DNA of 64,000 nt from assembly GCA_018221205.1 (NCBI GenBank), contig JAAOYF010000017.1, positions 863-64,862 on the forward strand, given 5' to 3'. Each line of letters opens with the position of its first letter. The first letter of the stretch is position 1. Shown here piece after piece: positions 8,662-39,918 of this stretch. The stretch is from Candidatus Woesearchaeota archaeon. GTDB taxonomy: Archaea; Nanobdellota; Nanobdellia; Woesearchaeales; WJIZ01. Under the pieces are notes generated by a model. It worked only from the letters and a program-made list of their open reading frames with translations, did no database searches and was not told the DNA's origin. Both the position numbers and the translations under genes were made by a program.

Positions 8662-8706
8662 ACAGTCATGGGCATATGCCGAGTTAATAAAGATTTCCCT
8701 GACCGG

Positions 8707-8720
8707 AAATTATATAAAAG
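8707..8720 (+). promoter_or_regulatory. TATA-like box (aaattatataaaag) upstream of rfbF
   Basis: Archaeal TATA consensus about 36-49 nt upstream of the ATG at 8756. Confidence 0.4.
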
Positions 8721-8755
8721 GTTTCGAGCACCAGTCTAGTAAATTTTGGGTGGAA

Positions 8756-9523: not shown

Positions 9524-10491
9524 GTTTCTGGAAAGATAAGAATGTCTTTGTCACCGGCGCAACAGGTATAGTCGGCTCAACATTGGTAAGTTTTCTACTC
9601 GAAAAAAAAGCACACGTGACAATCCTTCTAAAAGATGACGTTCCTAACTCTAATCTTATCTTATCAGGAAACATCAAGAAAGTCAACATAGTGAGGGGTA
9701 TTTTAGAGGACTATAAGCTTCTTCACCGCACAGTGCATGAATATGAGATCGATACGGTCTTCCATCTTGGAGCGCAGGCCATAGTGCAGACTGCAAATAG
9801 GTCTCCTCTGCCGACGTTCGAGACCAATATCCGTGGAACATGGAATATCTTAGAGGCAGCACGTACATCTGCCTTGATCAAACGCGTTGTCATCGCTTCC
9901 AGCGATAAAGCATATGGCGACCAAGAGAGGCTTCCTTATACTGAAGACGCTCCGTTGATAGGAAGGCATCCTTATGATGTCTCGAAAAGCTGCGCTGACC
10001 TGCTCTCGCAGGCATATGCCCATAGTTATGATCTGCCAGTTGCGATTGCGCGATGCGCAAATATCTATGGCCCTGGTGATCTGAATTTCAACAGGATCGT
10101 CCCTGAGACCATGAAAGCCGTCCTCGATGACGAGAATCCTAAGATAAGGAGCGATGGAAAGTTCATCCGTGATTACATCTATGTCAAAGATGTCGCCAAT
10201 GCCTATATGGAGCTGGCAGAACAGCTCGATAACAAAGAAGTGAAAGGCCAGGCCTTTAACTTCTCTGCTGGAAATAAGCTGACTGTGCTCGAGATAGTAG
10301 AAATAATCTTAAAAATAGCCGGAAAAAAAGAACTCAAGCCGGTTATCCTGAATCAGGCGAAGAACGAGATAAGGGATCAATATCTGGATGCTGCAAAAGC
10401 GAAGAAGATCCTGAACTGGAAAGCCAAATATGGATTGGAAGAGTCACTGAAACAGACCTTTGATTGGTACAAATCTTTCTTGGACGCATAA
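9520..10491 (+). CDS. rfbG: CDP-glucose 4,6-dehydratase
   Basis: [20 protein letters not shown]...[11 protein letters not shown] is RfbG/DdhB-like. ATGA overlap with rfbF. Confidence 0.85.
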
Positions 10492-13483: not shown

Positions 13484-14595
13484 ACATTCTCGTGACTGGC
13501 GGAGCAGGTTTTATCGGTTCTTTTCTTACTGACAAGCTTATCGAAAAAGGCCATACAGTAAGGATATTCGACAATCTCGATCCTCAGGTGCATCTTAAAG
13601 GCAATCCTCCTAACTATCTCAATAAAGGGGCAGAATTCATCAAAGGAGACATAAGGAATAAAGAGGAGCTTGAAAAGGCGCTCAAAGGTATTGATGCAAT
13701 ATACCATATGGCCGCAAAAGTAGGCATTGCACAATCAAATTACGAAGTTGAAGAATTTATCGACGTGAATTGTCGCGGTACAGCAAATCTCTTCAACCTC
13801 ATCATCAATAACAAGCTCAAGATGAAGAAAATTTTCATCCCTGGCTCCAATACGAGCTATGGTGAAGGCATGTATCACTGCAAAGCATGCGATGAAGATT
13901 TCCATGCAGAGGTAAGGCCTGTTGCTCAGCTTGAGAAGAAAGAATGGGGAGTGAAATGTCCAGGATGCGGAAAAGACACCAAACCTGTTCCGATCAAAGA
14001 AGATGCTCATCTCAAATGCAACTCTATCTACTCGATAACAAAGAAGTTCCAGGAAGAGACTGTTATGATGCTGGGAAAGATGTACAGCATCCCGATAACA
14101 GTCATGCGCTTCTTCAACGTCTACGGCGCGCGCCAATCCATAAACAACCCTTATTCGGGGGTGTCTGCCATTTTTCTGAGCAGACTGAAAAGTGATAATG
14201 TTCCGTTGATCTATGAAGACGGCCTGCAGACAAGGGACTTTGTCTCAGTCCATGATGTAATAGATGCAGCTCTCCTTTCCCTGACAGACAAGAAGACTGA
14301 CTATGAGATATTCAATATAGGCTCAAGAAATCCAGTGAGTATGTGTGATCTTGCTGCGATTCTTGCAAAGCATCTGAAAAAAGACATCAAGCCTATGATA
14401 AGCGGAAAATTCCGCAAAGGCGACATACGGAATTGCTATGGGGATATATCAAAGGCCGAGAAGGTTCTTGGTTATAGGCCGAAAGTGAGCTTTGAAGAGG
14501 GGATAAAGGAAGCTATCGGGTGGTCTGAGACAGAAGAATCAGTAGATAAGTTTGACAAAGCAGATAAAGAGCTGAAGGAGAAAGGTTTGGTATGA
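13480..14595 (+). CDS. NAD-dependent epimerase/dehydratase with an inserted CxxC...CxxC zinc-ribbon
   Basis: [14 protein letters not shown]...YSITKKF (YxxxK), with [10 protein letters not shown]...KCPGCGKD inserted in the middle. ATGA overlap with the upstream gene. Confidence 0.75.
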
Positions 14596-20337: not shown

Positions 20338-21353
20338 AAATAGGTATGCTCAGCAGATTCCCTCCTGAAAAGGATGGTATAGGTATCTACACAGAAGAAT
20401 TGGTGCAGGCATTGAGGAAAAAAGTCAAGGTCATCAAGATTGGCTCTCTTCATTCAGATGCAGATTACTGTCTTGACATGAAATCTTCCCTTCTCCATGA
20501 AAAACTGAAGCATATCATCAAGAAAGAACAGCTTGATCTGCTCCACATACAATATATCGCGCCTTTCTACAGCAAGATGCTCAACTATAATCTCCTGAAG
20601 GCGCTCAAGCAGGCCATACCGGTGATAGTGACCCTGCATGAAGTGCAATATCATACAGAGACGATTAAGCAGATGGCGCTCGCAAAGATAGAGGGATTGG
20701 TCGTGAAAAGAGCAAGCCGGGTTATCGTTCATACTGAAAGACAGAAAGCATTTCTTGAGAAGAAATATGCCGTAAAGAATGTGAAAAACATACTCATGGG
20801 TTTCAATATGGAAGAGATGTCAAGGAAAGGAAAGAATCTCCTCTTCTTCGGCATGATATCGAGAGAAAAAGGCATTCCTTATCTGCTGAAGGCAATGTCC
20901 CTTCTCAAAGGGTTTCATCTCACTGTCAAAGGGAATCCCATCAGCAACCAGATAGGAGAAGAGATACATAACGAGCTGAGAAGATGTGAGGAGGTAGACT
21001 ATGAATTGGGTTGGATCCCTGATAAAGAGAAACAGGCATCATTCAGAAAAGCAAATATCGTCGTCCTTCCTTATACCTGGGGACCATATCAATCTGCAGT
21101 TATTGCAAATGCTATGGAATATGGCCTGCCGGTAGTGGTGAGTAAAGTAGGGGCGATCTGGGAGCTCGTAGAGGAAAATGGTTTGGGAGAGGTCGTCTCT
21201 CCAAGAAATCCGAAACAGATTGCAGACGCGATCAAAGAAGTCTACATCAACTATCCGTCCTATCTAAAAACCATCGCAGCATTCAGAAAGAAGGCCAATT
21301 GGTCGCAGAGCGCAGAAAAACATTATCAGATCTATAAAAATGTCACAAGCTAA
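20334..21353 (+). CDS. GT4-family glycosyltransferase
   Basis: GT-B fold with a conserved C-terminal E-x7-E-like region. ATGA overlap with the upstream methyltransferase. Confidence 0.7.
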   Translation: MKIGMLSRFPPEKDGIGIYTEELVQALRKKVKVIKIGSLHSDADYCLDMKSSLLHEKLKHIIKKEQLDLLHIQYIAPFYSKMLNYNLLKALKQAIPVIVTLHEVQYHTETIKQMALAKIEGLVVKRASRVIVHTERQKAFLEKKYAVKNVKNILMGFNMEEMSRKGKNLLFFGMISREKGIPYLLKAMSLLKGFHLTVKGNPISNQIGEEIHNELRRCEEVDYELGWIPDKEKQASFRKANIVVLPYTWGPYQSAVIANAMEYGLPVVVSKVGAIWELVEENGLGEVVSPRNPKQIADAIKEVYINYPSYLKTIAAFRKKANWSQSAEKHYQIYKNVTS

Positions 21354-22758
21354 GACAGTCGCAAAAAATACGTTCTCATTATTTCTAGGAGAGGCCGTGA
21401 ATAAGGTCCTTTCTTTTCTCCTCATCTTCATGATTGCCCGCTCACTAGGAAGTTCAGAGCTCGGAAAATACTCTTTTGCGTTCGCATTCATCGGCTTTGC
21501 TTTGTTTTTCTCAAATTTAGGTGCGATAGAATATATGATAAGGGAGATCGCGAAATTCCCCAAACATGCGAAGAAGCTCTATGACCATGTCTTCACCTTA
21601 CGCCTGATGATACTTGGAGTGATGTCCCTCAGTCTGGTGGCTGTCGTATTGCTATGGGATAAGTTGACAAACATTTTTCTCATCGCATTCATGATCATCG
21701 GCATTGAAGTGCTGAGAAATCTCTCCCAAAATATTACTGCAGTGTTCCAAGGGAAGGAAAAGATGGAATATGTTGCGCTGGTGACGATTATCGAGCGCAT
21801 CCTTTCAGTCCTGTTTTCCTTCATAGTCCTCTGGCAGGGATTTGGCCTGCGGGCTGTTGTTGTTGTCTTGCTTTCATCACAGCTCATCGCATACATTATT
21901 GGCCTCGTGGTATTGAAAAAGACGTGCATCAGTCCAGGTATGGCAGTCAATCTGCCATATTACAAATCAATTATCCGCCACTCTCTCCCTTTTCTGGTCT
22001 CGAATTTTTTCTATATCATGTTATTCAGGATTGACACCATCATCCTAACGGCGTTTACGACCTATAGTATCGTCGGAGTGTATGCAGCTGCGGCAAAGAT
22101 CATCGAGGCGCTTGCCGCTATTCCCGTCATTCTCATCAGGCCTGTCTATCCTATCATGTCCCGTCTCTCTCTAAAAGGGGGTGTGAAAGATATTGGTAAC
22201 AAGCTTGTCTATTATATGGTGGTGCTTGCCGTTCCGATGGTGATTGGTACAATGATGTTGAGTGAAAGACTCATTCAGATTGTATATCCTGCAGACTTCA
22301 GTGCAGCCTCCCTCATCCTCCGTATTCTCATTGTCGGCGCTGGATTTGTATTCCTTAATTTCACGATGGGATATATGCTCAACTCCATTGGAAAAGAGAA
22401 AAAATTCACCCTCTCTAATACGATTGTAGCAGGTCTGAATATCCTCCTCAATCTCTCTCTCATCCCGTTCTTCGGCATGGTTGGTGCTGCTCTCGCCACT
22501 GTGATAAGTCAATTCACCAATTCTATTCTCCTCTTCCTCTTCACTGCAAGAGAAAAGCTTAAGGTCCGTATTTTCCACCATGTGCAGAAGCCATTGATTG
22601 CCTCTTTCGTGATGGGTGTTCTCATCTACTTGATAAGATCCTTCTCTATCTTACTGATCGTCCCTTCTGCGATGATAACATATGCGATCTTCTTCTATTT
22701 TATCGGAGGCATAGGTGAATTCGAAAAAAGATTTTTGCGCGAAGTGATGAAAAGATAA
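21340..22758 (+). CDS. Oligosaccharide/polysaccharide flippase (Wzx/MOP family)
   Basis: 12-14 TM helices, N-terminus KNTFSLFLGEAVNKVLSFLLIFMIAR typical of Polysacc_synt flippases. Confidence 0.75.
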   Translation: MSQAKTVAKNTFSLFLGEAVNKVLSFLLIFMIARSLGSSELGKYSFAFAFIGFALFFSNLGAIEYMIREIAKFPKHAKKLYDHVFTLRLMILGVMSLSLVAVVLLWDKLTNIFLIAFMIIGIEVLRNLSQNITAVFQGKEKMEYVALVTIIERILSVLFSFIVLWQGFGLRAVVVVLLSSQLIAYIIGLVVLKKTCISPGMAVNLPYYKSIIRHSLPFLVSNFFYIMLFRIDTIILTAFTTYSIVGVYAAAAKIIEALAAIPVILIRPVYPIMSRLSLKGGVKDIGNKLVYYMVVLAVPMVIGTMMLSERLIQIVYPADFSAASLILRILIVGAGFVFLNFTMGYMLNSIGKEKKFTLSNTIVAGLNILLNLSLIPFFGMVGAALATVISQFTNSILLFLFTAREKLKVRIFHHVQKPLIASFVMGVLIYLIRSFSILLIVPSAMITYAIFFYFIGGIGEFEKRFLREVMKR

Positions 22759-22848
22759 TACAATTTCACACTGAAGTGTGGGGTTTTAGACCCGGTGAGA
22801 TTTTCAATAACAAAAATTCTTATATAGGGAATGCCATCTCTGAACACT

Positions 22849-23985
22849 ATGAAAAAATTTGTCCAGGTCGTGATGGCTGTCGGCTCTGGCTGCCATTATC
22901 AAACCTCTCCAAAAGAGAAATATTTCTATAATAGTATCGATGTCATGAAGAAAAAAGGATTCACTCCAGAATTTTGGACACTCAGGCAAAAAGGAGAGAA
23001 GAAAAAAGAGATAGTGGATAGAGTCATGGTAAGAAGGTTCCAGAATCCTTTTTCGCTCGTGGCTACGCTCCTGCTCAAACCAGAAGTGAAGATGATCCAT
23101 GCCCATTTGAGGCCTTTTCTTCCTTCATTGCTATCTCCTCTTGCGATGAAGAGGTGTGTCCTCACTCCTCATACGTATGAGCTCGGCTCAACTTCCCTTA
23201 TAAGAAAAATGTCAGTATTTTTCATGAAACGGTTCACGAAAGTCATTGCACTCACTCCCTATGAAAAAGAACTGTATGAAAAACAGGGCATGAAGAACGT
23301 TGTGCTGATGCCCCACGCTATTGACATAGCTTATTTTTCAAAAAAGCCGAAAGATCTCTCGAAAATAAGGAAGCAGTACAACATCAAGTCAAAAGACTTC
23401 GTCATCACCTCAGTGTCGAATTTCAGGAAATTCAAGAACTTGGATACGATGATAGAGGCCTTCGGTATAATGTCAAAGAAGATAAAAGATGCGAAATTCT
23501 TTCTGGTAGGCATCAACCAACTTGACAACCCTCGCTATAAAGAGCAATCGGGGATGCGCTACAAGGACGTCGCCAATCCAGGGACTATAATAAAGAAATA
23601 TGGGATTCAGGACAGGGTGATCCTCACTGGAGGCCTTGATTACCAGAAAGTACGCGATATCTTGGCGGTAAGCCATGTATTCATCAATAGCTCAGACCCC
23701 GAGACCATGGGTCTTTCAGTCTACGAGGCTGCTGCCCACGGCGTCCCGCTCTGTCTTTCACGTATCGGCTCATTTACGACGGTTTTTGGCGACAGGGTGC
23801 TCTACAGCCCTCCTCGCAGTCCCGAACAACTCGCTCTGCAGTATCAAAAATATTATAAGCAACCATCATTGCAGAAACAGAATGGGCAGAGGGTGAAGAG
23901 ACTCATGAAGCAATGGGACTATCCTTTGTTCATGAAGAAATTGGATAAGCTCTATTCAGATGTGATAGCATGCCGGAAATCGTAA
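22849..23985 (+). CDS. GT4-family glycosyltransferase
   Basis: GT-B fold, ...GLSVYEAAAHGVPL... TATA-like ttcttatatagg at about 22822. Confidence 0.65.
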   Translation: MKKFVQVVMAVGSGCHYQTSPKEKYFYNSIDVMKKKGFTPEFWTLRQKGEKKKEIVDRVMVRRFQNPFSLVATLLLKPEVKMIHAHLRPFLPSLLSPLAMKRCVLTPHTYELGSTSLIRKMSVFFMKRFTKVIALTPYEKELYEKQGMKNVVLMPHAIDIAYFSKKPKDLSKIRKQYNIKSKDFVITSVSNFRKFKNLDTMIEAFGIMSKKIKDAKFFLVGINQLDNPRYKEQSGMRYKDVANPGTIIKKYGIQDRVILTGGLDYQKVRDILAVSHVFINSSDPETMGLSVYEAAAHGVPLCLSRIGSFTTVFGDRVLYSPPRSPEQLALQYQKYYKQPSLQKQNGQRVKRLMKQWDYPLFMKKLDKLYSDVIACRKS

Positions 23986-24650
23986 ACGGACAAAGAAAAG
24001 TATGGAACCCTCTCGCGAGGTATTATATAGAACCGATTGGAGAGTGGATCGCTGAAAGGCTGAAAAATACTATCGTCACGCCGAATTTCATCACACTGAT
24101 AAATACAATTCTCAGTCCCGTTGCCGGGTTGCTTCTCTTCTCAGACAATTATCTTCATCTGGTGCTGTTTGCGATCTGGGTACGGATCTTCCATATCATA
24201 GATATCATTGACGGCCACCTAGCAAGGATAACCGACAAGAAGAGTAAATTTGGCGGTCTATTCGATGGCATCAGTGACCGTTTTGTCGTCGGTTCATGGT
24301 TTGCCTTAATCGCTATCTCTCTCTATGTGAAGTCATCAAACCATGTCTTCCTGCTATTTGGCATTCTCCTGCTCTTCGGAGAGTTCATCTACACAGATAC
24401 GGCTATGCTATCCGACAAGATTTATGTAGGCCATATAAAGAAAGACAAGGTCAAGCAGCAGCTGAAGCGGAATGCCTTTGCGAAGATCTTTCTTACGTTC
24501 ATCGACAATGACATAAGCTGGCATCTTCTGACTCTTGCTGCGTTGCTCAACAGATTAGATATATTCCTCATCTTCTATGCAATATATGTGAATCTTGTCT
24601 GGATGAGTTATCTGGGCTATTATTTCCTAAAGCATATCACAGGTGGATGA
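23970..24650 (+). CDS. CDP-alcohol phosphatidyltransferase family membrane protein
   Basis: DIIDGHLARITDKKSKFGGLFDGISDRF fits D-x2-DG-x2-AR...G-x3-D-x3-D. Confidence 0.65.
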   Translation: MPEIVNGQRKVWNPLARYYIEPIGEWIAERLKNTIVTPNFITLINTILSPVAGLLLFSDNYLHLVLFAIWVRIFHIIDIIDGHLARITDKKSKFGGLFDGISDRFVVGSWFALIAISLYVKSSNHVFLLFGILLLFGEFIYTDTAMLSDKIYVGHIKKDKVKQQLKRNAFAKIFLTFIDNDISWHLLTLAALLNRLDIFLIFYAIYVNLVWMSYLGYYFLKHITGG

Positions 24651-24651
24651 A

Positions 24652-26520
24652 TTGTGTGGTATCGTCGGAATCTATAATGGTCCGGTCTCAAAAGCTGTCC
24701 TGAAGAAGATGACTGACTGTCTTGCCCATAGGGGCCCTGATGATTCAGGCATCTATACGGATAAGAAGATTGGTCTCGGCCATCGCCGGCTTTCTATCCT
24801 TGACTTGAGCAAAAAAGGTCATCAGCCCATGCTTGACAGAGAGAAAAGTGTTATCATTTCTTATAATGGAGAGATCTATAATTTTCAGAAGATAAAGGAA
24901 GACCTCCAAGGTAAAGGATATTCCTTCAGCTCAGATACTGATACTGAAGTCATCTTATATGCATACAAAGAATGGGGCATCGACTGCATCAAGAGATTCA
25001 ATGGTATGTTCGCTTTCGCATTGTATGATAAAAAGAAAGATGTCCTCTATCTTGTAAGGGACCGCTTAGGGATAAAGCCGTTGAGATATACTGTCCAAGG
25101 AAAAGCAATAATCTTTGCCTCTGAGATAAAATCGATCCTTCACCATCCAAGCTACAAGAAGCTGCCCGATTGGAAAGCATTGAGCAGCTATCTCTCTTAC
25201 CGCTATGTCCTTGGTGAAGGGACATTCTTCAAAGGGATCAATGACATATTGCCTGGTCATTATCTAGAGATAAGCAAGGGAAAGATAAAGAAAGTGGAAT
25301 ATTGGGATATCCCTCTTCCAGAGAAGAAAGATCGCGGAAAAAGTTTCTACAAAAAGAAAGTCAGAGAGTTGATGGCTGAGTCTGTCCGGCTGAGGATGAT
25401 CAGCGACGTCCCTGTTGGAGCCTACTTGAGCGGAGGCCTTGACTCAAGCATCATCGTCTCCTTGATGTCCAAGGCAACGAATGAGCATGTGAAGACCTAC
25501 TCCATAGGTTTCAAGCAGAAAGAGTTCAATGAGCTCAAATATGCCAATCTTGTCGCAAAGCAATGCAGGACAAGACATAAGGATATCATGATAGACAGCA
25601 GAAAATACCTTAAGACCATGGAGAGACTCATAAGATTCAAGGACGCGCCCCTCGCAGTGCCGAATGAGATACCCATCTACTTGATGTCGAAAGTGCTGCG
25701 GAAAGATATAACTGTCGTCCTGTCAGGAGAAGGCGCAGATGAGATCTTCTCAGGTTATGGCCGCCTGTTCAGGAGCCCATTTGACTATAAACGTTTAGCA
25801 TTCAGGACAGAATCATTGGGAAAAAAGTATGGCACCCGTTCCTTTACTCAGCTGGACCATTTTCTCTTCCAGTACAACTACTTTCCGGTCGAGGAAAAGA
25901 ATGCCATCTATAATGGATTCATGAAGGGGCTTACTAAAAACGATGCTGGTCTGAAGAGAATATTCCAGAAATACTTCACAAAGGCAAGCCGTCTGAACTA
26001 TTATGACAAGATAAGCTATGTGTTCGAGAAACTCCACCTCGTCGGCCTGCTGGAAAGGGTCGACAACCCGACAATGGCTACCTCTGTCGAGGCAAGAGTG
26101 CCCTTTGTCGATCATAAATTAGTAGAATTCATGTTTTCAGTGCCGATGAAATACAAGCTGAAATGGAAATCTCCTCTTGCGTTCCTCAAAGCCCTTTCTA
26201 AGAACACCGACGAGATAAGTGAGAATCTCGACATAACCAAATACATCCTGAGAGAGAGCTTCAAGAAAGACATTCCTGCTGCAGTCATCAAGAGAAAGAA
26301 GCAGGGCTTCCCTGTTCCTTTGGATTTTTGGTTCAAGAAAGATTTTATAGCATATGCAAGGAGGATTCTCTTAGATCCTAAGGCAAAGATAAAGAAGATA
26401 ATCGATCAGGCTAGACTCGATGGCTGGATCCAGAAGAAAAAACAGTCAGGCGACAATGCATTTGGCCAAAAGATATGGATGTTGGTGAATATTGAGCTCT
26501 GGCTTCAGAATTATTTTTAA
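24652..26520 (+). CDS. asnB: Asparagine synthase (glutamine-hydrolysing) family amidotransferase
   Basis: CGIVGIY... Ntn-glutaminase N-terminus plus SGGLDSS PP-loop. The catalytic Cys must be residue 2, which implies a TTG start at 24652 rather than the ATG at 24643. Confidence 0.8.
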   Translation: MCGIVGIYNGPVSKAVLKKMTDCLAHRGPDDSGIYTDKKIGLGHRRLSILDLSKKGHQPMLDREKSVIISYNGEIYNFQKIKEDLQGKGYSFSSDTDTEVILYAYKEWGIDCIKRFNGMFAFALYDKKKDVLYLVRDRLGIKPLRYTVQGKAIIFASEIKSILHHPSYKKLPDWKALSSYLSYRYVLGEGTFFKGINDILPGHYLEISKGKIKKVEYWDIPLPEKKDRGKSFYKKKVRELMAESVRLRMISDVPVGAYLSGGLDSSIIVSLMSKATNEHVKTYSIGFKQKEFNELKYANLVAKQCRTRHKDIMIDSRKYLKTMERLIRFKDAPLAVPNEIPIYLMSKVLRKDITVVLSGEGADEIFSGYGRLFRSPFDYKRLAFRTESLGKKYGTRSFTQLDHFLFQYNYFPVEEKNAIYNGFMKGLTKNDAGLKRIFQKYFTKASRLNYYDKISYVFEKLHLVGLLERVDNPTMATSVEARVPFVDHKLVEFMFSVPMKYKLKWKSPLAFLKALSKNTDEISENLDITKYILRESFKKDIPAAVIKRKKQGFPVPLDFWFKKDFIAYARRILLDPKAKIKKIIDQARLDGWIQKKKQSGDNAFGQKIWMLVNIELWLQNYF

Positions 26521-27020
26521 TGCTCCTTCAGTTCTTTCCGCAATTTCTCCAGATCTTTGCTTTTCCGTGCATACACTTTCAGTTTTGAGAGTTCCTCTCT
26601 CTCTTTGATCAAGAGTGTATTGAGGACAGTCGAAGAGACCCCTTGAGTATAAGGGAAATAGATGACTTTGACTCCCATTTTCTTGAATTTCTTTTCAATA
26701 GAAGTCCATTTTTTTGTCTTGAACCAATCATCACCGACAAACATCACATCAAATTTCAGCCGTTCCCATTGCTTGAACTTATCCATGTCCTTTTGAGGGA
26801 CAACAGAATCGACATATTTGATTGAACGGACAATCTCGCAGCGTTCATTGAAGGGGATGATGGGGCTTTTGAACTTGTATGCGACAAGTTCGTCAGTGGT
26901 CACGCCGACAACAAGTCTGTCGCACATCGATTTTGCGTTGCGCAGCACATTAAGGTGTCCGATATGGAATAAGTCAAAGACGCCTGCAGTGTAGCCGACG
27001 ATTTCCTTCTTCTTTTTCAT
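26517..27020 (-). CDS. tagD: Glycerol-3-phosphate cytidylyltransferase
   Basis: GYTAGVFDLFHIGHLNVLRNAK shows the HxGH cytidylyltransferase motif, and the 167-aa size is TagD-like. The stop overlaps the asnB stop convergently. Confidence 0.8.
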   Translation of the reverse strand: MKKKKEIVGYTAGVFDLFHIGHLNVLRNAKSMCDRLVVGVTTDELVAYKFKSPIIPFNERCEIVRSIKYVDSVVPQKDMDKFKQWERLKFDVMFVGDDWFKTKKWTSIEKKFKKMGVKVIYFPYTQGVSSTVLNTLLIKEREELSKLKVYARKSKDLEKLRKELKEH

Positions 27021-27058: not shown

Positions 27059-28909
27059 TTAGACGACTCGGAATATGATTGCTCCTGCTGTCTGGAATGC
27101 GACTGGAAATTGAGGAGATGTTCCTATCTCTTCAATCCTTTGTGAAAGGAGTTCTTGAGTGACGTTCTCCCCGAAGGTCCTGCTTAAGAAATTAAAAGAG
27201 CTTCCATCGACAACCAGATATTCATATTCATTTTCCTTAAGGAACTGGGAAAGCTCACTCGCATTCTTATAGAGGATCTCCTTTCTGAACGCGACCACGT
27301 CGTCACACCAAAGACAGCTGAATTTATCCATACCGATCAGATGCTCATCATAGGAATACGCAAAAACCTTCGTACCGACAGGCAATTGTCCTAACCAGAT
27401 ATATCCTTGGATCTCCTCATTCGAGGTCCATCCTACTCCTGGCGGCCATTGTGCTGTATTGACAGCATACTTCTGCATCCCGGATGTCTGCCATAGGAGT
27501 ATGATTAAGATGATGATGGTGACAAATTGAGGTATCTTGAATTGTCTGCCTAATCTTACCAGGAACGAAAATCCCTCCGCAGCAAGAAGAGAAAGCGGCA
27601 GTGCGAACAGCATCCAGAATCTGAAAGCGAAAAGCCCGAATGGAAGATTAAAGGTAAGGCTGTTGATGCCTAGGAAAGTAAACAGGCTCCAGAGTATAAT
27701 GATGAGTGTCTTTGTCTTCTTGTCCTTATTCATCGACTTGAAAGTGAAAGCGATAAGGATGATAGAAAACAGAGCAAGCAAGGTTATGACAACACCAAGA
27801 CCGATAGGATTATTGATCATGTTAGCAGACTTAGCGACAAAAAAGTCATCGAAGGTATAGATGCGGGTAGCTGTTCCGCTGCCTGGCGGGAATGCTTTTT
27901 TGAGCGCTTGCCAGAGGTTGAATCCTCCTGACGATACATCCACTGCACCATCAGATCCTTTGAAGATGATCTGTTTCCAGTTCCATGCCCACCAGATAAG
28001 TGATAAAAGATAGCCTCCGGCAATCGCAGTAAAATGGGGCAAAGAGAATTTTCTGTTCATAATCCATCTGACGATAAAAAAGATGCCATACATGAATGCA
28101 TATTTGATAGGTTGTGTGGGTTGAGTGAGAGCAATGCCTGCAATGACCATCATAGTAGGATACATCCAGCGTTTATCCTTCTCAATCTGGACAAGGCAAT
28201 AGAGAGAGACGATGAAAAGGGTAGTGACTAGGGAATGTGCCCAGATGAAATGGCTCAGATAACTGGGTACCATCGCCAGCGCAATAGTGGCATACAATGC
28301 TTTTGAGCTCTGCAAGAAATGTTTAGCGAAGAAATAGAAAAAAAGAATGCCGAGCGAGATGAATAAGGCATTGAAGAATTTTAAAGTCCACATCAATGAG
28401 GCACTGGTCTGATGAAGTATGCCTAAGATTGCGTCAAAGGCAGGTGGATAAGGCAGGATATAGAAAAACTGGTCATGGGGATCATCAATCTTCTTTTCAA
28501 CAGCTACATATTTAGCACCCACCGCATGAGCCCAAGGATCATCATCTTCAAGATAGGGATACACAAAAGCCCCTTTGGTATACATGAAAAGGGTCGCCCC
28601 GAAAATTAAGAGTACGATAAGAAAATAGATATGTGACTTCTTGAGGATGAATGCATGCAATTTAAAATTTTTGTAGTTCTTGAAAGCCATCACCAAAGGG
28701 CCGATTATACTGAGCAAAAGAATGATTCTCCAATCCAGCATGATATGCAAAAAATCGAGAAGCACGACCAAAAAGGCCAGTACACCAAGGCCTATGCCTA
28801 TTCTCATGATATGCCGTTCGATGATATCTTGCTTCTTTAAGAAAAAGCTTGCACTGAAGCCTAATCCATAGGCATAGATGAAAAATAAGAGTATAGTGAA
28901 AAAGCTCAT
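27059..28909 (-). CDS. GT-C-fold membrane glycosyltransferase (ArnT/PMT-like) with a C-terminal soluble domain
   Basis: About 13 TM helices. The first extracytoplasmic loop carries an acidic YPYLEDDDPW motif like the GT-C DD/DE catalytic motif. Confidence 0.55.
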   Translation of the reverse strand: MSFFTILLFFIYAYGLGFSASFFLKKQDIIERHIMRIGIGLGVLAFLVVLLDFLHIMLDWRIILLLSIIGPLVMAFKNYKNFKLHAFILKKSHIYFLIVLLIFGATLFMYTKGAFVYPYLEDDDPWAHAVGAKYVAVEKKIDDPHDQFFYILPYPPAFDAILGILHQTSASLMWTLKFFNALFISLGILFFYFFAKHFLQSSKALYATIALAMVPSYLSHFIWAHSLVTTLFIVSLYCLVQIEKDKRWMYPTMMVIAGIALTQPTQPIKYAFMYGIFFIVRWIMNRKFSLPHFTAIAGGYLLSLIWWAWNWKQIIFKGSDGAVDVSSGGFNLWQALKKAFPPGSGTATRIYTFDDFFVAKSANMINNPIGLGVVITLLALFSIILIAFTFKSMNKDKKTKTLIIILWSLFTFLGINSLTFNLPFGLFAFRFWMLFALPLSLLAAEGFSFLVRLGRQFKIPQFVTIIILIILLWQTSGMQKYAVNTAQWPPGVGWTSNEEIQGYIWLGQLPVGTKVFAYSYDEHLIGMDKFSCLWCDDVVAFRKEILYKNASELSQFLKENEYEYLVVDGSSFNFLSRTFGENVTQELLSQRIEEIGTSPQFPVAFQTAGAIIFRVV

Positions 28910-28976: not shown

Positions 28977-29540
28977 ATGGCTTTACTTTCAACCTATTTA
29001 CGTCACCAACGTCTCAATCGTACACGACAATTCGTGAAGCAAGGTTTGCTGGAAGGAGATGTGCTTGATATTGGCTGTTGGGATGCAGAATTGCTGCAGT
29101 TCATCAAGCCAAAAAAGTATGTCGGGATTGATATTGAAAAGGAAAAGATCATAAAGAACAAGAAAAGATATCCGCAGCATGAGTTCTACATTATGGATCT
29201 AGAAAAAGACCCATTTCCACCTATCCAAAAAGTGGACACCATAATCCTCACCGCAGTCATCGAACATATCAATAATACAGGAAATTTCTTCTCTCAACTG
29301 CACAAAGTATTAAAAAAGCAAGGTAACTGTCTCATTACAACACCTACTCCGATAGGAAACTGGCTCCATGGCCTAGCTTCAAAGATCGGCTTGATGAGCA
29401 AGGAAGCAGCGCATGAGCATGTAAGCATCTACAATATCAAGAAGATGAAAAAAGAATGCCAAAATTACGGTCTGAGAGTAAAGAGACATAAAAGATATCA
29501 GGGCGGATTGAATCAATACTTTATTGTGGGTATAAAATGA
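28977..29540 (+). CDS. Class I SAM-dependent methyltransferase
   Basis: VLDIGCWDAELL...ILTAVIEHI...QGNCLITTP. Confidence 0.65.
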   Translation: MALLSTYLRHQRLNRTRQFVKQGLLEGDVLDIGCWDAELLQFIKPKKYVGIDIEKEKIIKNKKRYPQHEFYIMDLEKDPFPPIQKVDTIILTAVIEHINNTGNFFSQLHKVLKKQGNCLITTPTPIGNWLHGLASKIGLMSKEAAHEHVSIYNIKKMKKECQNYGLRVKRHKRYQGGLNQYFIVGIK

Positions 29541-30403
29541 AAATAATCGTAACAATTCCGGCATATAATGAGGAAAAGACCATTGCCAAAGTAGTGAAAG
29601 AGATAAAGAGAAATGTTCAGGCCGCTATCCTTGTTATTGATGATGGCAGTACTGATGACACCGTTAAAGAAGCGAAGCAGGCAGGCGCTTCTGTGATCTC
29701 TCATCCGATGAACTATGGTCTTGCTCTTACCTTTAGGACAGAGATGAAAGAGGCGTTAAAATTGAAGCCTGATATCATTGTGCATACAGACGCAGATGGT
29801 CAATATCTCGCTTCTGACATCCCTCGGCTTATCAAACCAGTTAAAGAGAAAAGGGCAGATCTTGTGTTGGGCTCTCGATTCAAAGGAAAGATTGAACATA
29901 TGGCATTCATCAAGCGTTTTGGCAACAAGGCTTTTTCAAGGATAATCTCAAAGATAGTCGGAAAAAAGATAAGTGATGCCCAGACAGGTTTCAGGGCTTT
30001 TACGCCAGAGATTGCAAAACTCCTGATTACTTCTAATCATACTTACACCCAAGAGCAGATCATCCGCGCAATGAAGGAAAAATTCAGTATAGTTGAAGTG
30101 CCTGTCTATTTCGCAAAGAGAAAGGACAAGAGCAGATTGATGAAACATCCATTTGAGTACGCATTGAAGGCATGGATAAATCTCATGCGGATTTATCGGG
30201 ATTATGAGCCGTTGAAGTTCTTTGGTTTTTTTGGGGCATCTTCAATAACCTTGGGTTTGATTCTTGGTGTATGGATACTCTATACGCTGCTCCAGACAGG
30301 ACAGGTGGGTGGCATTCCAAGAGTGATTCTCTCTGCCCTGTTTATTATGACTGGGGTGCAGATTTTCCTCTTTGGTTTCTTGGCTGACATGCATCGAAAA
30401 TGA
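29537..30403 (+). CDS. Family-2 glycosyltransferase with a C-terminal TM anchor (Dol-P-sugar synthase, AglD/DPM1-like)
   Basis: MKIIVTIPAYNEEKTI...VIDDGSTDDT...TDADGQY...QTGFRAF plus two C-terminal TM helices. Confidence 0.8.
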   Translation: MKIIVTIPAYNEEKTIAKVVKEIKRNVQAAILVIDDGSTDDTVKEAKQAGASVISHPMNYGLALTFRTEMKEALKLKPDIIVHTDADGQYLASDIPRLIKPVKEKRADLVLGSRFKGKIEHMAFIKRFGNKAFSRIISKIVGKKISDAQTGFRAFTPEIAKLLITSNHTYTQEQIIRAMKEKFSIVEVPVYFAKRKDKSRLMKHPFEYALKAWINLMRIYRDYEPLKFFGFFGASSITLGLILGVWILYTLLQTGQVGGIPRVILSALFIMTGVQIFLFGFLADMHRK

Positions 30404-31329
30404 AGCTGACGATAGTTAAGGTGTTGATAAGCATCATTTTAATTGGAGTTGTTATGTATGTCATTGGATTGCAGGAGATTGCCCAAAGTGCGATGCAGAT
30501 AGGTGTCATTCCTTTGCTTATTGCTCTGGTGATAATCCTTCTGGTAATGGTGCTCTTTGCAGTAAGAATGTATGTATTGGTAAGGGCAGTCAAGAGGATT
30601 CCATTCAAGACAGTGTTCAGGGATGCTGTTGCAGCTCTTTGTTTAGGTACATTTTCTCCGGGAAAGATAGGTGAGCTCTCTTTTGTCTATTCTCTCACAA
30701 AAGAGAAAGTGCCGGCTGGCTCTGCAAGCGCGATTTTCATCATTGATAGGGTAAATTCTCTTCTGACCATCGCATTCTTTGCTTTGCTAGGTGTTTTCGT
30801 CATAACTCCCCTGAAGCAGAATCTCTGGCTTATTGTCCTCATTATTGTGCTGCTGATCACAGGGGCATTTATGGTGACATCAAGAAAAGGGATTTCTATC
30901 ATAAAAAAATTGCTGATGAGGTCGATAAGGGAGAAATTTGTGGGCTATACGAAAGCAATGAAAAAAATGAAGGGTTTTGCCTACATCGAGAATCTTGCGC
31001 TGAATATACTGAACATCATCATACGGTCTATTGCGATATTCATTCTCCTGCTGTCGTTGAAAGAGCAGGTTCCATTCATCTTATTGGTGGCAGTGAATGG
31101 CATTATGACTCTTGCATCTTTGATACCCATCAGCCTGAGCGGCCTTGGTGTCCGTGAGGGCGGTGCTATCCTCTTGCTCCATTTAGCGGGCCTTGGTAAA
31201 GAGAATGTTGCTGTCGCGTATATATTCATATCTCTTGCCACCTATGTTTTCTCTGCAATCCTGCTCCTTTTTTTTGTCAAAACCAAAAAGTCTATTAAAC
31301 CCTCTCAGTTAATGAAAAAGAATGGTTAA
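30400..31329 (+). CDS. Flippase-like membrane protein (lysylphosphatidylglycerol-synthase TM-domain family)
   Basis: Eight TM helices. It sits immediately downstream of, and overlapping, a GT2 gene (ATGA). Confidence 0.5.
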   Translation: MKLTIVKVLISIILIGVVMYVIGLQEIAQSAMQIGVIPLLIALVIILLVMVLFAVRMYVLVRAVKRIPFKTVFRDAVAALCLGTFSPGKIGELSFVYSLTKEKVPAGSASAIFIIDRVNSLLTIAFFALLGVFVITPLKQNLWLIVLIIVLLITGAFMVTSRKGISIIKKLLMRSIREKFVGYTKAMKKMKGFAYIENLALNILNIIIRSIAIFILLLSLKEQVPFILLVAVNGIMTLASLIPISLSGLGVREGGAILLLHLAGLGKENVAVAYIFISLATYVFSAILLLFFVKTKKSIKPSQLMKKNG

Positions 31330-38460: not shown

Positions 38461-39918
38461 ATGAAATCTATGTATGTGAAGAAGGACATACAGCAGGCGA
38501 TGGTGGAGAACGCGAGGAATAGGGAGATCGCGATCCGCTATGGTAATCATTTCGGCAAAAGGCCAGATATTATAACCTATCCTGATGAGGTCCTTGATCT
38601 CATCAAACAAGGCGCGACAAGCTTCCATGCATCTGAAGAGCTATGGGAAAATCCGAAGCTGATTGTTTCGGATATGAGACCGGCTGATGTTGCAAAGCTG
38701 CGCAAAGGATGGGATCTTATTCTAGACATCGACTCCCCTGTCTGGAAAATATCAAAGATAACTGCCTGGCTCATCATTCAGGCGTTGAAAGATTTCGGCA
38801 TCTCCTCGATTTCTGTGAAATTCTCTGGCAACAAGGGCTTTCATATCGGCGTACCTTTTGAAGCCTTCCCCGAGACATATAGAGAACAGAAGACAAAGGA
38901 TCTTTTTCCCGATGCTCCGAGAAGGATCGCAACCTTCCTCTTGGATTATATCAACCAGACCTACATCGCTGTCAAAGAGAACCAGATCGTCTTCGGAGAA
39001 GGCCTGAAGAGAAGATTTCGTGTCCCCTATGAAAAGCTGTTGAAAGTGACCGGAAAGAGCATGGAAAAGCTGACATTTCGGCATTGTTCAAAGTGTAGAA
39101 AGAAGATTGATGTAAAGACAGAGAGAAAAGTCGAATTCTATTGTCCAAAGTGCAGCAATTCAATAAAGAGTGAAGATAAGCAATTCGAGAAATGTCCAAA
39201 ATGCAAGATACTGATGGAAAAATTCGAAGGGAAGAAAAGCTTATGCTCATGCGGAAGCAATGAATCCTATATCATGTTCAATCCATCTTCCATAATCGAA
39301 GTAGATACCATCCTTATCTCCTCAAGGCATCTCTTCAGGATGCCCTATTCGATGCATGAAAAATCAGGATTGGTTTCGATTCCTTTTAATCCAGATAAGA
39401 TTCTTGAGTTTGAGAAGAAATATGCCCGTCCAGAGATCATTAAAGTGTCGAAGCATATATTCATCGATAGGGATAAGACAGAAAGAAACGAAGCGTCCAT
39501 GCTGTTGGGAAAAGCATTGGCATTCTCAGATCAGAAAGAGGAAGTGAAGATAAAGAAAGAATATGAAGAAGTGGGTGAAGCAGTTCCCGAAACACTATTC
39601 CCTCCGACAATCAAAAAGATGCTGGAAGGATTGGAAGATGGAAGAAAAAGGGCATTATTCATCCTCATCAATTTTCTCAAATGTGTCGGTTGGAGCCATG
39701 ATCTGATTGAGAAAAGGATAAAAGAATGGAACAAGAAGAATAAAGGGCCCTTAAAAGAGCAAATAATCATAGGTCAATTACGTTATCAGAAGAATAAAGA
39801 AAGGGTTCCTCCTCCGAACTATGATAAAGACTATTACTCTGGAATCGGCATTACACCCGCAGAAGAGGAGATGCGTTTCAAGAATCCAGTACGGTATGCG
39901 CTTGCAAGAAGGGGATAA
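38461..39918 (+). CDS. priS: DNA primase catalytic subunit (archaeo-eukaryotic primase, PriS) with a Zn-ribbon insert and a C-terminal PriCT-like helical domain
   Basis: DLILDIDSP (DxD), FSGNKGFHIGV (SGxRGFH), RHLFRMPYSMHEKSGL, two CxxC pairs. The C-terminal ~110 aa (GRKRALFILINFLKCVGWSHDLIEKRIKEWNKKNKGPL) resembles a primase C-terminal (PriCT) module. Confidence 0.7.
   Translation: MKSMYVKKDIQQAMVENARNREIAIRYGNHFGKRPDIITYPDEVLDLIKQGATSFHASEELWENPKLIVSDMRPADVAKLRKGWDLILDIDSPVWKISKITAWLIIQALKDFGISSISVKFSGNKGFHIGVPFEAFPETYREQKTKDLFPDAPRRIATFLLDYINQTYIAVKENQIVFGEGLKRRFRVPYEKLLKVTGKSMEKLTFRHCSKCRKKIDVKTERKVEFYCPKCSNSIKSEDKQFEKCPKCKILMEKFEGKKSLCSCGSNESYIMFNPSSIIEVDTILISSRHLFRMPYSMHEKSGLVSIPFNPDKILEFEKKYARPEIIKVSKHIFIDRDKTERNEASMLLGKALAFSDQKEEVKIKKEYEEVGEAVPETLFPPTIKKMLEGLEDGRKRALFILINFLKCVGWSHDLIEKRIKEWNKKNKGPLKEQIIIGQLRYQKNKERVPPPNYDKDYYSGIGITPAEEEMRFKNPVRYALARRG

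Follow-up and report, generated by a model that had tools for sequence, protein, structure and literature searches.

Within the window, by which we mean the whole stretch of 64,000 nucleotides of a Candidatus Woesearchaeota contig analysed here, three genuine genes encoding a membrane protein of the CDP-alcohol phosphatidyltransferase family (CDP-OH protein), an AsnB-type amidotransferase (AsnB) and an HxGH cytidylyltransferase (CT) appear to form one module that would place phosphate-linked glyceric acid or glyceramide on a surface glycan of this tiny DPANN archaeon, a reading to which we attach a probability of about 0.55. Glycerate or glyceramide 2-phosphate is a likelier head group than glycerol phosphate because AsnB is conserved beside CT, genes for UDP-sugar dehydrogenases (UGDH) are rare near the pair, and the Escherichia coli O82 O-antigen presumably lacks uronic acid; D-glyceramide 2-phosphate is more likely than D-glycerate 2-phosphate. 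The initial annotation had described a CDP-glycerol module, of which a CT feeding a CDP-activated head group to the CDP-OH protein inside a glycan island stands, whereas glycerol phosphate seems the less likely head group.

Table 1. Features of the module and its immediate surroundings in the window
Feature	Positions	Strand	Length	Predicted role or remark
Wzx/MOP-type flippase	21340..22758	+		Polysacc_synt, 102.7 bits; context suggests export of a lipid-linked oligosaccharide
GT4 glycosyltransferase	22831..23985	+		Glycos_transf_1, 80.6 bits; 3' end shares 16 nt with the beginning of the CDP-OH gene
CDP-alcohol phosphatidyltransferase-family integral membrane protein	23970..24650	+	226 aa	Predicted transferase of a phospho-head group from a CDP-linked donor to an acceptor
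AsnB-type glutamine-dependent amidotransferase	24652..26520	+	622 aa from TTG 24652	Predicted amidation of the head-group carboxylate
TTAA common to the convergent TAA stops of AsnB and CT	26517..26520	.		Read from the sequence
HxGH cytidylyltransferase (CT), distinct COG0615 clade	26517..27020	-	167 aa	Predicted CTP:phosphoglycerate (or phosphoglyceramide) cytidylyltransferase
Polytopic membrane protein, weakly GT-C/PMT_2-like	27059..28909	-	616 aa	Directly downstream of CT

The three open reading frames are present where they had been annotated (Table 1), and Pfam confirms all three family assignments, with 79.7 bits for CT (PF01467, CTP_transf_like), 52.1 bits for the CDP-OH protein (PF01066, CDP-OH_P_transf, cut-off 22) and 283 bits for AsnB (Asn_synthase, accompanied by GATase_7 at 154 bits). 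AsnB also exceeds the cut-off of TIGR01536 (489 versus 267 bits) and displays an SGGLDSS PP-loop and an M-C-G N terminus, the nucleophile start being found in 15 of the 15 homologues examined. The GTG at 24643, given as its start in the list of open reading frames, is probably wrong. We favor the TTG at 24652, 1 nt past the point where the CDP-OH gene ends with TGA (24648-24650), because it directly precedes the Cys codon and yields M-C-G-I-V-G, which supplies the nucleophile that class-II amidotransferases have at their N terminus. This AsnB is of a long type, sharing 29% identity with the short AsnB of E. coli O82 (about 507 aa), and the two could differ in function.

CT had been annotated as a TagD-like enzyme that makes CDP-glycerol, an assignment that its scores do not support. 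Indeed, it reaches 92 bits against TIGR01518, the curated TagD equivalog model, where the cut-off is 165.4, and eight of eight relatives tested, the E. coli O82 enzyme among them, stay within 89-97 bits; furthermore, one Psychrobacter locus (L018) has both a member of the window CT clade and a true TagD (196.8 bits). In a neighbor-joining tree, CT and its ortholog from the O82 cluster (WP_053880134.1, 57% identity) fall into one clade with 96% bootstrap support, while TagD/TarD form a separate clade (100%), the nearest characterized one; CT groups neither with choline/ethanolamine enzymes nor with FAD synthetases, a check that the initial annotation had proposed. The signature of CT comprises H19IGH22, K49xK51, P75Q76xxM79D80K81 and P123Y124TQGVSST. 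The PYTQGVSST segment stands where TagD has RTEGISTT, the Arg of which is replaced by Tyr in 119 of the 120 closest CT homologues, and the clade carries PQxx(M/L)(D/N)K in place of the PExxW of TagD. On these comparisons, CT is best described not as a TagD equivalog but as a member of a separate and widespread sister clade. It is about 70% identical to Firmicutes versions, and such identity between a DPANN archaeon and Firmicutes suggests that the module has probably been exchanged between domains.

The foremost competing explanation, which we hold to be unlikely, is that the product of CT is ordinary CDP-glycerol (possibly with the sn-1 stereochemistry of archaea), that the CDP-OH protein adds glycerol phosphate and that AsnB separately makes a uronamide. 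While the position of TagD/TarD in the tree, the match of CT to 1coz (70.6 bits) and the conservation of HxGH, KxK and GDDW speak for it, the sub-threshold scores of all tested clade members and the real TagD of L018 speak against it. The closest solved relative of the CDP-OH protein, AF2299, was also reportedly crystallized with CDP-glycerol, in keeping with this alternative.

Gene linkage bears on the uronamide part, which the initial annotation had put as amidation of a uronic acid and which, as an independent step, is not borne out. In 19 of 24 nonredundant loci of the CT clade, CT has an AsnB homologue as its immediate neighbor, and in one further locus the two are about 1 kb apart; these 20 loci come from Firmicutes, Proteobacteria, Kiritimatiellae, and DPANN, the pairs often overlap by 4 nt (stop/start), and AsnB is the most conserved neighbor of CT across phyla. 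Genes for uronic acid synthesis are conserved near CT to a far lesser degree, since a UGDH occurs within 10 kb in only two (L005 and L019) of the 22 other loci tested, and in L027 AsnB is coupled to an unrelated nucleotidyltransferase. On the other side, the window island contains a UGDH of the UDP-glucose/GDP-mannose dehydrogenase family and a UDP-GlcNAc 2-epimerase 5-10 kb away, which would make a uronic acid substrate available to AsnB, and in L005 the gene for a long-type AsnB comes right after those for a dehydrogenase and an epimerase. Four CT-clade loci lack AsnB. No substrate-supply gene conserved near the AsnB/CT pair was found in the loci compared.

The third function is equally part of this linkage: 18 of the 20 loci with AsnB and CT encode a CDP-alcohol-dependent phosphotransferase, drawn from two unrelated families, TagF-like Glyphos_transf (10 loci) and CDP-OH_P_transf (8 loci, two of them with weak matches). 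The order AsnB-CT-wzx-Glyphos_transf-wzy of E. coli O82 is matched in L006 by AsnB-CT-wzx-CDP-OH-x-wzy, an in-place swap of one family for the other. The catalytic motif of the window CDP-OH protein is complete (D78xxD81G82xxA85R86x8G95xxxD99xxxD103); the protein has some 5-6 hydrophobic segments and falls far below all NCBIfam equivalog cut-offs (PIP synthase, AIP synthase, DIPPS, PgsA, and PssA). Its homologues, at 40-52% identity, adjoin the same CT and AsnB in L001/L007, L003, L025, and L031, and a search from the CDP-OH side recovers L025 and L031 (40-45% identity) with AsnB and a CT of the same clade. Its surroundings also recur, as homologues of the GT4 gene are found near the module in L003, L005, L007, and L020, and Wzx-type flippase homologues adjoin it in L003 and L006.

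That the same donor chemistry instead gives a new polar lipid, with archaeol, diacylglycerol, or polyprenol as the alcohol that accepts the head group, seems to us quite improbable. The products of all characterized PF01066 members are phospholipids or small solutes, inositol-phosphate lipid synthases give the CDP-OH protein its best NCBIfam matches and Caulobacter employs CDP-glycerate for a lipid head group, but the gene lies amid GT4/GT2 genes and a Wzx flippase (window, L003, L006, and L007), with a Wzy in L006, its 5' end overlaps the GT4 gene by 16 nt, and in L006 it takes the slot of the TagF-like glycan-modifying enzyme of E. coli O82.

The nature of the head group is suggested by bacterial glycans. 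The O-antigen cluster of E. coli O82 (NCTC9082) consists only of genes for an AsnB-family protein, a CT and a protein of the CDP-glycerol glycerophosphotransferase family, together with wzx, wzy and three glycosyltransferases. The O-unit, attributed to Vilchez et al. (2009), is reportedly Glc-Gal-Glc-GlcNAc with P-2-D-GroA on O6 of Glc, and we take this O-antigen to contain D-glyceric acid 2-phosphate and no uronic acid. The O82 cluster resembles the window in its orthologous CT, in the AsnB gene that lies just upstream and overlaps it by 4 nt, and in the presence of a CDP-X phosphotransferase, and differs in its short AsnB, its TagF-like transferase and its bacterial Wzx/Wzy context. Phosphodiester-linked glyceric acid is documented in an E. 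coli serogroup (PMC9912281), and D-glyceramide 2-phosphate in Providencia alcalifaciens O22 (PMC6222762). The S-layer glycosylation (slg) cluster of Paenibacillus alvei CCM 2051 contains wsfA (homologous to Asn synthase), tagD and wsfC and includes a Glyphos_transf domain, and the S-layer glycan carries GroA-2-phosphate and no uronic acid (PMC2943079). It resembles the window in having an Asn synthase homologue together with a cytidylyltransferase, described as a putative G3P enzyme, while it differs in using an ABC-transporter pathway and in O-glycosylating an S-layer protein. Paenibacillus sp. P36 (L004) has the order wzm-wzt-AsnB-CT-Glyphos_transf. The combination, in E. coli O82 (structure as reported) and P. 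alvei, of AsnB and CT with a glycan that has glycerate phosphate and lacks uronic acid argues against glycerol phosphate and a uronamide. Both glycans are reported as the free acid (GroA), which leaves the role of AsnB unexplained unless an amide was missed.

There is little probability that some other small phospho-acid, such as phosphoserine, phosphothreonine, phospholactate, or 3-phosphoglycerate, serves as the head group and is amidated and transferred alike: the substrate cannot be read from sequence alone, any central metabolite might serve where no supply gene is conserved near the pair, and a phosphonate pathway, too, relies on a related CDP-OH subfamily, but the only solved glycans from organisms with this type of trio have glycerate 2-phosphate (the CT clade being confirmed for E. 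coli O82 and not for P. alvei), L024 combines a CDP-OH homologue with a gene of the glycerate-2-kinase family, and glyceramide 2-phosphate is a known natural substituent.

With a glycerate or glyceramide 2-phosphate head group, CT would join CTP and 2-phospho-D-glycerate, or its amide, to give CDP-glycerate or CDP-glyceramide; 2-phospho-D-glycerate is a glycolytic intermediate, and a dedicated supply gene would not be needed. The N-terminal Cys of AsnB would hydrolyze glutamine and the carboxylate would be adenylated and converted into a primary amide, a step that could precede cytidylylation, act on the CDP donor or follow transfer. At the cytoplasmic face, the CDP-OH protein would place the phospho-head group on a hydroxyl of one of the sugars in a polyprenyl-linked oligosaccharide, freeing CMP and doing the work of the TagF/TagB-like enzyme of most bacterial versions, and the neighboring Wzx-type flippase may export the decorated unit.

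The proposed module recalls several known systems. As in wall teichoic acids and teichoic-acid-like capsules (TagD/TarD with TagF/TagB), a COG0615 HxGH enzyme would activate a small phospho-alcohol that a phosphotransferase passes to a membrane-anchored glycan, and a TagF-like Glyphos_transf enzyme is what the module employs in most bacteria that have it. However, the window CT, although of the sister clade, scores below the equivalog threshold and lacks the Arg of RTEGISTT, its clade has an obligate-looking AsnB partner, the window transferase is a CDP-OH_P_transf membrane enzyme, and the glycans associated with the module carry glycerate 2-phosphate in place of glycerol phosphate. An established phosphoglycerate donor is the CDP-glycerate that CpgD of Caulobacter crescentus makes from 2-phospho-D-glycerate and CTP (PMC12275187, PMC13228409). 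CpgD has an unrelated COG1213/NTP_transferase fold, and the CpgD/CpgA system serves a sphingolipid acceptor (ceramide diphosphoglycerate) and has no amidotransferase; yet IPCT/CpgD-like nucleotidyltransferases replace the HxGH CT beside CDP-OH homologues in L027, where one lies 1 nt upstream with AsnB, and in L024, where an NTP_transferase and an SDR accompany the glycerate-2-kinase-family protein.

AF2299 of Archaeoglobus and IPCT/DIPPS, archaeal enzymes with soluble CDP-alcohol donors, share the DxxDGxxAR...GxxxDxxxD motif with the window CDP-OH protein. They are its nearest solved structures, with only 52.8 bits for AF2299 and 32.7 bits for DIPPS; an AF2299-like extension of some 120 aa at the N terminus, which many relatives of the window protein carry, is absent from it, and its predicted acceptor is a glycan, not a small phospho-alcohol. 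Fom1 CyTase-PEP mutase fusions, which cytidylylate 2-hydroxyethylphosphonate, have PYTxGISST and VVPQ motifs in their CyTase domain, as in the CT clade, and a Fom1-like fusion adjoins close homologues of the window CDP-OH protein in L028-L030, with genes for a TPP-dependent decarboxylase-like protein and an Fe-ADH. However, the window lacks PEP mutase, phosphonopyruvate decarboxylase and Fe-ADH, and the CT clade is closer to TagD than to Fom1 in the tree.

Two minor observations concern the borders of CT. The 616-aa membrane protein beside it matches PMT_2 (23.6 bits) and TgpA_N (25.6 bits) below the Pfam cut-offs, and has no match in NCBIfam. The annotated overlap of the convergent AsnB and CT stops is real, the TAA of AsnB (26518-26520) and that of CT (26519-26517, minus strand) sharing 2 nt. 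It is incidental, since the convergent pair is 3 nt apart in a related Woesearchaeota locus (L003), and AsnB and CT are co-directional in most bacteria among the loci compared.

Three adjoining genes in the window encode a CDP-alcohol phosphatidyltransferase-family membrane protein (hereafter the CDP-OH protein), an AsnB-type amidotransferase (AsnB) and an HxGH cytidylyltransferase (CT), and the reading that we favor, at a rough probability of 0.55, is that they would decorate a glycan with glycerate or glyceramide 2-phosphate, glyceramide being the amide of glyceric acid (GroA). All three reading frames called in the initial annotation are present where it had placed them, and each of them exceeds the Pfam gathering threshold of the family then assigned. 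The overlap of the AsnB and CT stop codons is likewise read from the sequence, both TAA stops lying within TTAA at 26517-26520 and sharing 2 nt. A regulatory role for this overlap was ruled out, since it is a 2-nt coincidence absent from the DPANN locus L003 and from the co-directional bacterial loci. The true start of AsnB is probably TTG 24652 rather than the listed GTG, because this codon directly precedes the Cys and yields M-C-G-I-V-G, with the N-terminal nucleophile of class-II amidotransferases; it falls 1 nt past the TGA of the CDP-OH gene, whose own 5' end is overlapped by 16 nt by an upstream GT4 gene. This spacing suggests that the GT4, CDP-OH and AsnB genes form one tight transcription unit, convergent with the CT gene and that of a GT-C-like membrane protein. 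The module sits in a large glycan island (about 8.6-37 kb) containing nucleotide-sugar enzymes, GT2, GT4 and GT9 genes, a Wzx-type flippase and methyltransferases.

Features of the window and of comparison loci (positions in nucleotides of the respective locus)
Locus	Feature	Position	Strand	Remarks
Window	Large DUF6541-family membrane protein	4827-6479	+	
Window	Large DUF6541-family membrane protein	7114-8661	-	
Window	ORF, 503 aa	15282-16793	-	No Pfam match
Window	CDP-OH protein (CDP-OH_P_transf), 226 aa	23970-24650	+	PF01066, 52.1 bits (gathering threshold 22)
Window	AsnB-type protein, 625 aa as listed	24643-26520	+	Asn_synthase 283 bits; GATase_7 154 bits; listed start GTG 24643
Window	CT (CTP_transf_like), 167 aa	27020-26517	-	PF01467, 79.7 bits (gathering threshold 21)
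Window	GT-C-like protein, 616 aa	27059-28909		
Window	GT2 with C-terminal TM segments, then LPG_synthase_TM-family membrane protein	29537-31329	+	Stop/start overlapping
Window	Primase small subunit	38461-39918		
Window	TYW1-like wyosine enzyme	41199-42215		
Window	GcpE/IspG, full length	44291-45520	+	379.7 bits
Window	ORF, 497 aa	54083-55576	-	No Pfam match
Window	ORF, 994 aa	58863-61847	-	No Pfam match
L008	TPR-GT4-Glyphos_transf protein, about 1170 aa	4940-8455		Paenibacillaceae
L009	TPR-GT4-Glyphos_transf protein, about 1170 aa	4888-8433		Paenibacillaceae
L018	New-clade CT	10013-10432		TIGR01518, 96.9 bits
L018	True TagD (second CT)	13898-14299		TIGR01518, 196.8 bits
L024	Genes from GT4 to IPCT-like NTP_transferase	4199-8904	one strand	
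L029	CDP-OH homologue and flanking genes	574-3812		

The CT had been described as TagD-like, which stands as a family-level kinship and falls for TagD itself. Its membership in PF01467 and COG0615 is clear, it carries the HxGH nucleotide-binding motif (H19-I-G-H22), and its fold, as judged from PDB homologues (1coz, 2b7l, 3elb and 5x3d) at E about 1e-18, is not in doubt. Against the NCBIfam TagD/TarD equivalog TIGR01518, it scores 92.0 bits for a curated cut-off of 165.4, and eight clade relatives from Firmicutes and Proteobacteria, E. coli O82 included, reach 89-97 bits. The second CT of a Psychrobacter fozii locus (L018) is, on the other hand, a true TagD. This score gap and the coexistence of both enzymes in L018 indicate that TIGR01518 separates two families able to share one locus; L018, where no AsnB was found within 10 kb, is a natural case for comparing the specificities of a new-clade CT and a true TagD. 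In a small tree (22 sequences, neighbor joining only), the window CT and its orthologue from E. coli O82, 57% identical, fall into one clade (96% bootstrap), and another is made up of TagD from B. subtilis, TarD from S. aureus and the second CT of L018 (100% support), the two being sisters relative to human ECT, Fom1 CyTase and 3glv. The window CT groups with none of the choline, ethanolamine and FAD enzymes, the kind of kinship that the initial annotation had named as refuting a TagD. FAD synthetase (RibL), PPAT, NMNAT and RfaE-II identities were also dropped, the NCBIfam scores being far below the cut-offs.

Furthermore, the RTxGISTT signature of TagD with its conserved Arg (R113) is absent from the window CT, which has P123-Y124-T-Q-G-V-S-S-T, and a Tyr occupies the Arg position in 119 of its 120 closest homologues. 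The clade is marked by PYTxG(V/I)SST as against RTEGISTT, and by PQxx(M/L)(D/N)K as against the PExxW of TagD. In the CCT-CDP-choline structure, the W position lines the head-group pocket, and the E-to-Q and W-to-M changes would fit a different head group, possibly an anionic one or an amide. Judged on its sequence, the window CT is a TagD solely in a loose sense. The clade is very large (7962 matches at E <= 1e-3 among 8000 candidates scored, many about 70% identical), and its proteins bear generic names or that of glycerol-3-phosphate cytidylyltransferase in their sources. The CTs of DPANN and of Firmicutes are about 70% identical, which suggests transfer between the two domains. Three of the homologues (P0002, P0003 and P0006, 268-277 aa) are double CTs in which two HxGH domains stand in tandem. 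Their second domain belongs to the PYT clade, and the build recalls the eukaryotic ethanolamine-phosphate cytidylyltransferase.

The amidotransferase has the N-terminal Cys, both expected domains and an SGGLDSS PP-loop at residue 260, and scores 489 bits against TIGR01536 (cut-off 267). It is of a long type, 29% identical to the short-type AsnB of O82, and its best PDB match is the hydroxyamidotransferase 7ylz (230 bits), E. coli AsnB reaching 164 bits. This hints that the long-type clade includes enzymes acting on non-aspartate carboxylates. The AsnB-CT pair is the conserved core of the module. Indeed, in a set of 24 non-redundant CT-clade loci (the window; the DPANN loci L003, L007, L025 and L031; 18 bacterial loci obtained from a genome scan and contig look-ups; E. 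coli O82), an AsnB homologue directly adjoins the CT in 19 and lies about 1 kb off in one more. Such retention beside the CT within glycan clusters argues against asparagine synthesis as the role of the window AsnB. The bacterial AsnB is usually immediately upstream of the CT on the same strand, and the two often share a 4-nt stop/start overlap (L004, L008, L009, L020 and E. coli). The trio stays together in every DPANN locus, in variable orientation: CDP-OH and AsnB converge on the CT in the window, L003 and L031, and CDP-OH and CT converge on AsnB in L007 and L025. All 15 AsnB partners examined begin with M-C-G, which marks them as glutamine-hydrolyzing, amide-making enzymes.

The initial annotation had assigned this amide to a uronic acid, with AsnB working independently of a TagD that makes CDP-glycerol. 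We consider this model unlikely, even though TagD is the nearest characterized clade to the CT, the window island, which encodes a UDP-GlcNAc 2-epimerase and a UDP-sugar dehydrogenase, is able to make uronic acids, and the long-type AsnB of L005 comes after a dehydrogenase and an epimerase. A UDP-sugar dehydrogenase is present within 10 kb in only two of the 22 other loci tested, a screen that preceded the finding of L023-L031. A DNA search for TagD-type genes in E. coli serogroups with glycerol phosphate was uninformative, returning only 75-90-bp partial matches at scattered loci.

The third component of the module is an interchangeable transferase. A phosphotransferase using, by its family, CDP-linked donors is present in 18 of the 20 loci with the AsnB-CT pair, as a TagF/TagB-like Glyphos_transf protein in 10 (L004, L008, L009, L011, L013, L015-L017, L019 and E. 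coli O82) and as a CDP-OH_P_transf protein in eight (the window, L003, L006, L007, L025, L031 and, as weak matches only, L005 and L020). The gene order AsnB-CT-wzx-Glyphos_transf-wzy of E. coli O82 is matched in L006 by AsnB-CT-wzx-CDP-OH_P_transf-x-Wzy_C, a non-orthologous, in-place replacement of the transferase. In the window protein, the catalytic motif D(x)2DG(x)2AR(x)7-12G(x)3D(x)3D is complete at residues 78-103 (DIIDGHLARITDKKSKFGGLFDGISD) and reads D78xxDGxxARx8GxxxDxxxD103, D78, D81, G82, G95 and D99 being invariant among its relatives. About five to six hydrophobic segments (about 38-59, 61-82, 105-123, 122-147 and 184-216, from Kyte-Doolittle hydropathy only) agree with the polytopic core of about six TM helices. 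The protein belongs to the CDP-alcohol phosphatidyltransferase family and its closest solved relative is Archaeoglobus AF2299; it stays far below the cut-offs of all the named equivalogs (PIP synthase, archaetidylinositol-P synthase, DIPPS, PgsA, PssA, ClsA), the best being PIP synthase at 62.5 bits for a cut-off of 170. A lipid rather than a glycan as acceptor is improbable. In the two Paenibacillaceae loci L008 and L009, the protein encoded upstream of AsnB-CT combines TPR and GT4 domains with a C-terminal Glyphos_transf domain. It has close relatives in Clostridium botulinum and C. sporogenes, and these proteins may belong to a protein (flagellin or S-layer) glycosylation system.

The chemical anchor of the favored reading is E. 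coli O82. The AsnB-CT pair occurs in 7 of 5426 complete E. coli genomes, NCTC9082 included (DNA search with a gammaproteobacterial clade member as query), and the galF-gnd region of NCTC9082 holds solely an AsnB-family gene, a CT, an 'O82 family' wzx, a CDP-glycerol glycerophosphotransferase-family gene, an 'O82 family' wzy and three GTs. The O-unit, reportedly solved by Vilchez et al. (Carbohydr Res 2009), is said to be ->4)-a-D-Glcp6(P-2-D-GroA)-(1->4)-b-D-Galp-(1->4)-b-D-Glcp-(1->3)-b-D-GlcpNAc-(1->, that is, four common sugars and D-glyceric acid 2-phosphate without any uronic acid. Since the three GTs and WecA cover the sugars, the trio is left to explain the P-GroA group. The window resembles this O82-type module, a grouping proposed here and not a curated family, in its CT of the PYT/PQxxMDK clade, in the AsnB adjoining it (convergent, with the shared TTAA) and in a phosphotransferase for CDP-linked donors, which lies 1 nt upstream of AsnB and is of the CDP-OH_P_transf family, whereas that of O82 is TagF-like. 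Phosphodiester-linked glyceric acid is listed among E. coli O-antigens in a Chem Rev article from the laboratory of the O82 structure (PMC9912281). The S-layer glycan of Paenibacillus alvei contains Gal, Glc, ManNAc, Rha and GroA-2-phosphate, and its cluster comprises wsfA ('asparagine synthase homologue'), tagD and a Glyphos_transf domain proposed by its authors to add GroA-2-phosphate (PMC2943079). The O82 and P. alvei genes carry homology-based names only. A protein search with a WsfC-like query from Paenibacillus returned TPR-GT4-Glyphos_transf proteins from Paenibacillus and Clostridium, P. alvei not being among the matches. D-glyceramide 2-phosphate itself has been documented on the O-antigen of Providencia alcalifaciens O22 (PMC6222762). 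Caulobacter is established to form CDP-glycerate from 2-phospho-D-glycerate as a donor, and the enzyme responsible, CpgD, is of unrelated fold (PMC12275187, PMC13228409) and not homologous to TagD-type enzymes (PMC12275187); the CpgD-type (COG1213) NTP_transferase/IPCT-like fold is not that of the window CT, which is PF01467 only.

The sequences show the genes, their motifs, their linkage and the orthology to the O82 enzyme; what is activated, that it becomes an amide, in which order the reactions run and what accepts the group we infer as follows. The CT would activate 2-phospho-D-glycerate, or its amide, with CTP; AsnB would turn the carboxylate into the amide using glutamine and ATP; and the CDP-OH protein would move the phospho-head group onto a lipid-linked oligosaccharide before Wzx flipping. 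Activation and transfer of the head group are of the same kind as in TagD/TagF and CpgD/CpgA. What sets the module apart from these is its distinct CT clade, the coupling to an amidotransferase and, for the archaeal form, a transferase of the CDP-alcohol family. Another phospho-acid as head group is improbable. Most at odds with this scheme are the O82 and P. alvei substituents, which are reported as acid and not as amide. Glyceramide would be turned into glyceric acid by any component analysis based on hydrolysis, and NMR in D2O hides amide protons, so that, speculatively, an amide could have been missed in both. The acid form would be made by the four loci without AsnB and by L024. A wider proposal is held only tentatively, namely that a widespread, uncharacterized pathway makes CDP-D-glyceramide, an activated donor new to the literature, through a dedicated COG0615 CT clade and a coupled AsnB, that the group is installed on glycans either by TagF-like enzymes or by CDP-alcohol phosphatidyltransferases of a new branch that modifies glycans, that the pathway has crossed between Bacteria and DPANN, and that the 'glyceric acid phosphate' of O82 and P. 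alvei may be the amide.

A metagenome scan with an alignment of close relatives of the window CDP-OH protein returned eight loci, two of which (L025 and L031) hold the full trio. In L027, the CDP-OH gene precedes that of an IPCT/CpgD-like NTP_transferase, and 1 nt separates the stop of the latter from a 606-aa AsnB; the CT fold is exchanged here and AsnB retained. In L024, a GT4, the CDP-OH homologue, a DUF4147/MOFRL protein, an SDR and an IPCT-like NTP_transferase follow one another; the DUF4147/MOFRL protein matches solely glycerate 2-kinases in NCBIfam (166 bits, below cut-off), placing glycerate metabolism near the CDP-OH subfamily independently of the CT clade. L024 may by itself provide the whole path from glycerate, by way of 2-PG and CDP-glycerate, to head-group transfer, with no AsnB involved. 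In L028-L030, a close homologue of the window CDP-OH protein has as neighbors a TPP-dependent decarboxylase-like gene and an Fe-ADH on one side and, on the other, a Fom1-like CTP_transf_like-PEP_mutase fusion, a gene set that, from its annotation, is a 2-hydroxyethylphosphonate-type pathway and suggests transfer of a cytidylylated head group of that type. Taken over L024-L030, the subfamily would seem to serve generally in the transfer of small phospho- or phosphono-head groups activated with CMP.

Our literature search found no paper describing a glyceramide/AsnB-CT-transferase pathway. If correct, the model assigns genes to orphan glycan substituents (the glycerate and glyceramide 2-phosphates of E. 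coli O82, P. alvei and Providencia O22), predicts that TagD-like cytidylyltransferases include a substrate specificity new to the family, gives a concrete role to the 'asparagine synthase homologues' that are conserved in polysaccharide clusters, and suggests glycan modification, in place of phospholipid synthesis, for some enzymes of the CDP-alcohol phosphatidyltransferase family. Thousands of database entries named glycerol-3-phosphate cytidylyltransferase would then probably be misnamed. We know of no glycan structure from DPANN archaea, for which cell-cell contact with a host is a necessity, and the model is the first specific chemical prediction for their surface glycans. It is directly testable in E. 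coli NCTC9082.

Other genes of the window deserve mention. The GT-C-like protein adjoins the GT2/LPG_synthase_TM pair, and together they look like a lipid-phosphate-sugar synthase with an outside-acting transferase. The two DUF6541-family proteins lie at the edge of the glycan island and the 503-aa ORF inside it; the 994-aa and 497-aa ORFs are candidate surface or S-layer proteins, or something else. Finally, the contig encodes GcpE/IspG, the HMBPP synthase of the bacterial-type MEP isoprenoid pathway, the mevalonate pathway being the normal route in Archaea, and the same contig carries archaeal markers (the wyosine enzyme and the primase subunit).
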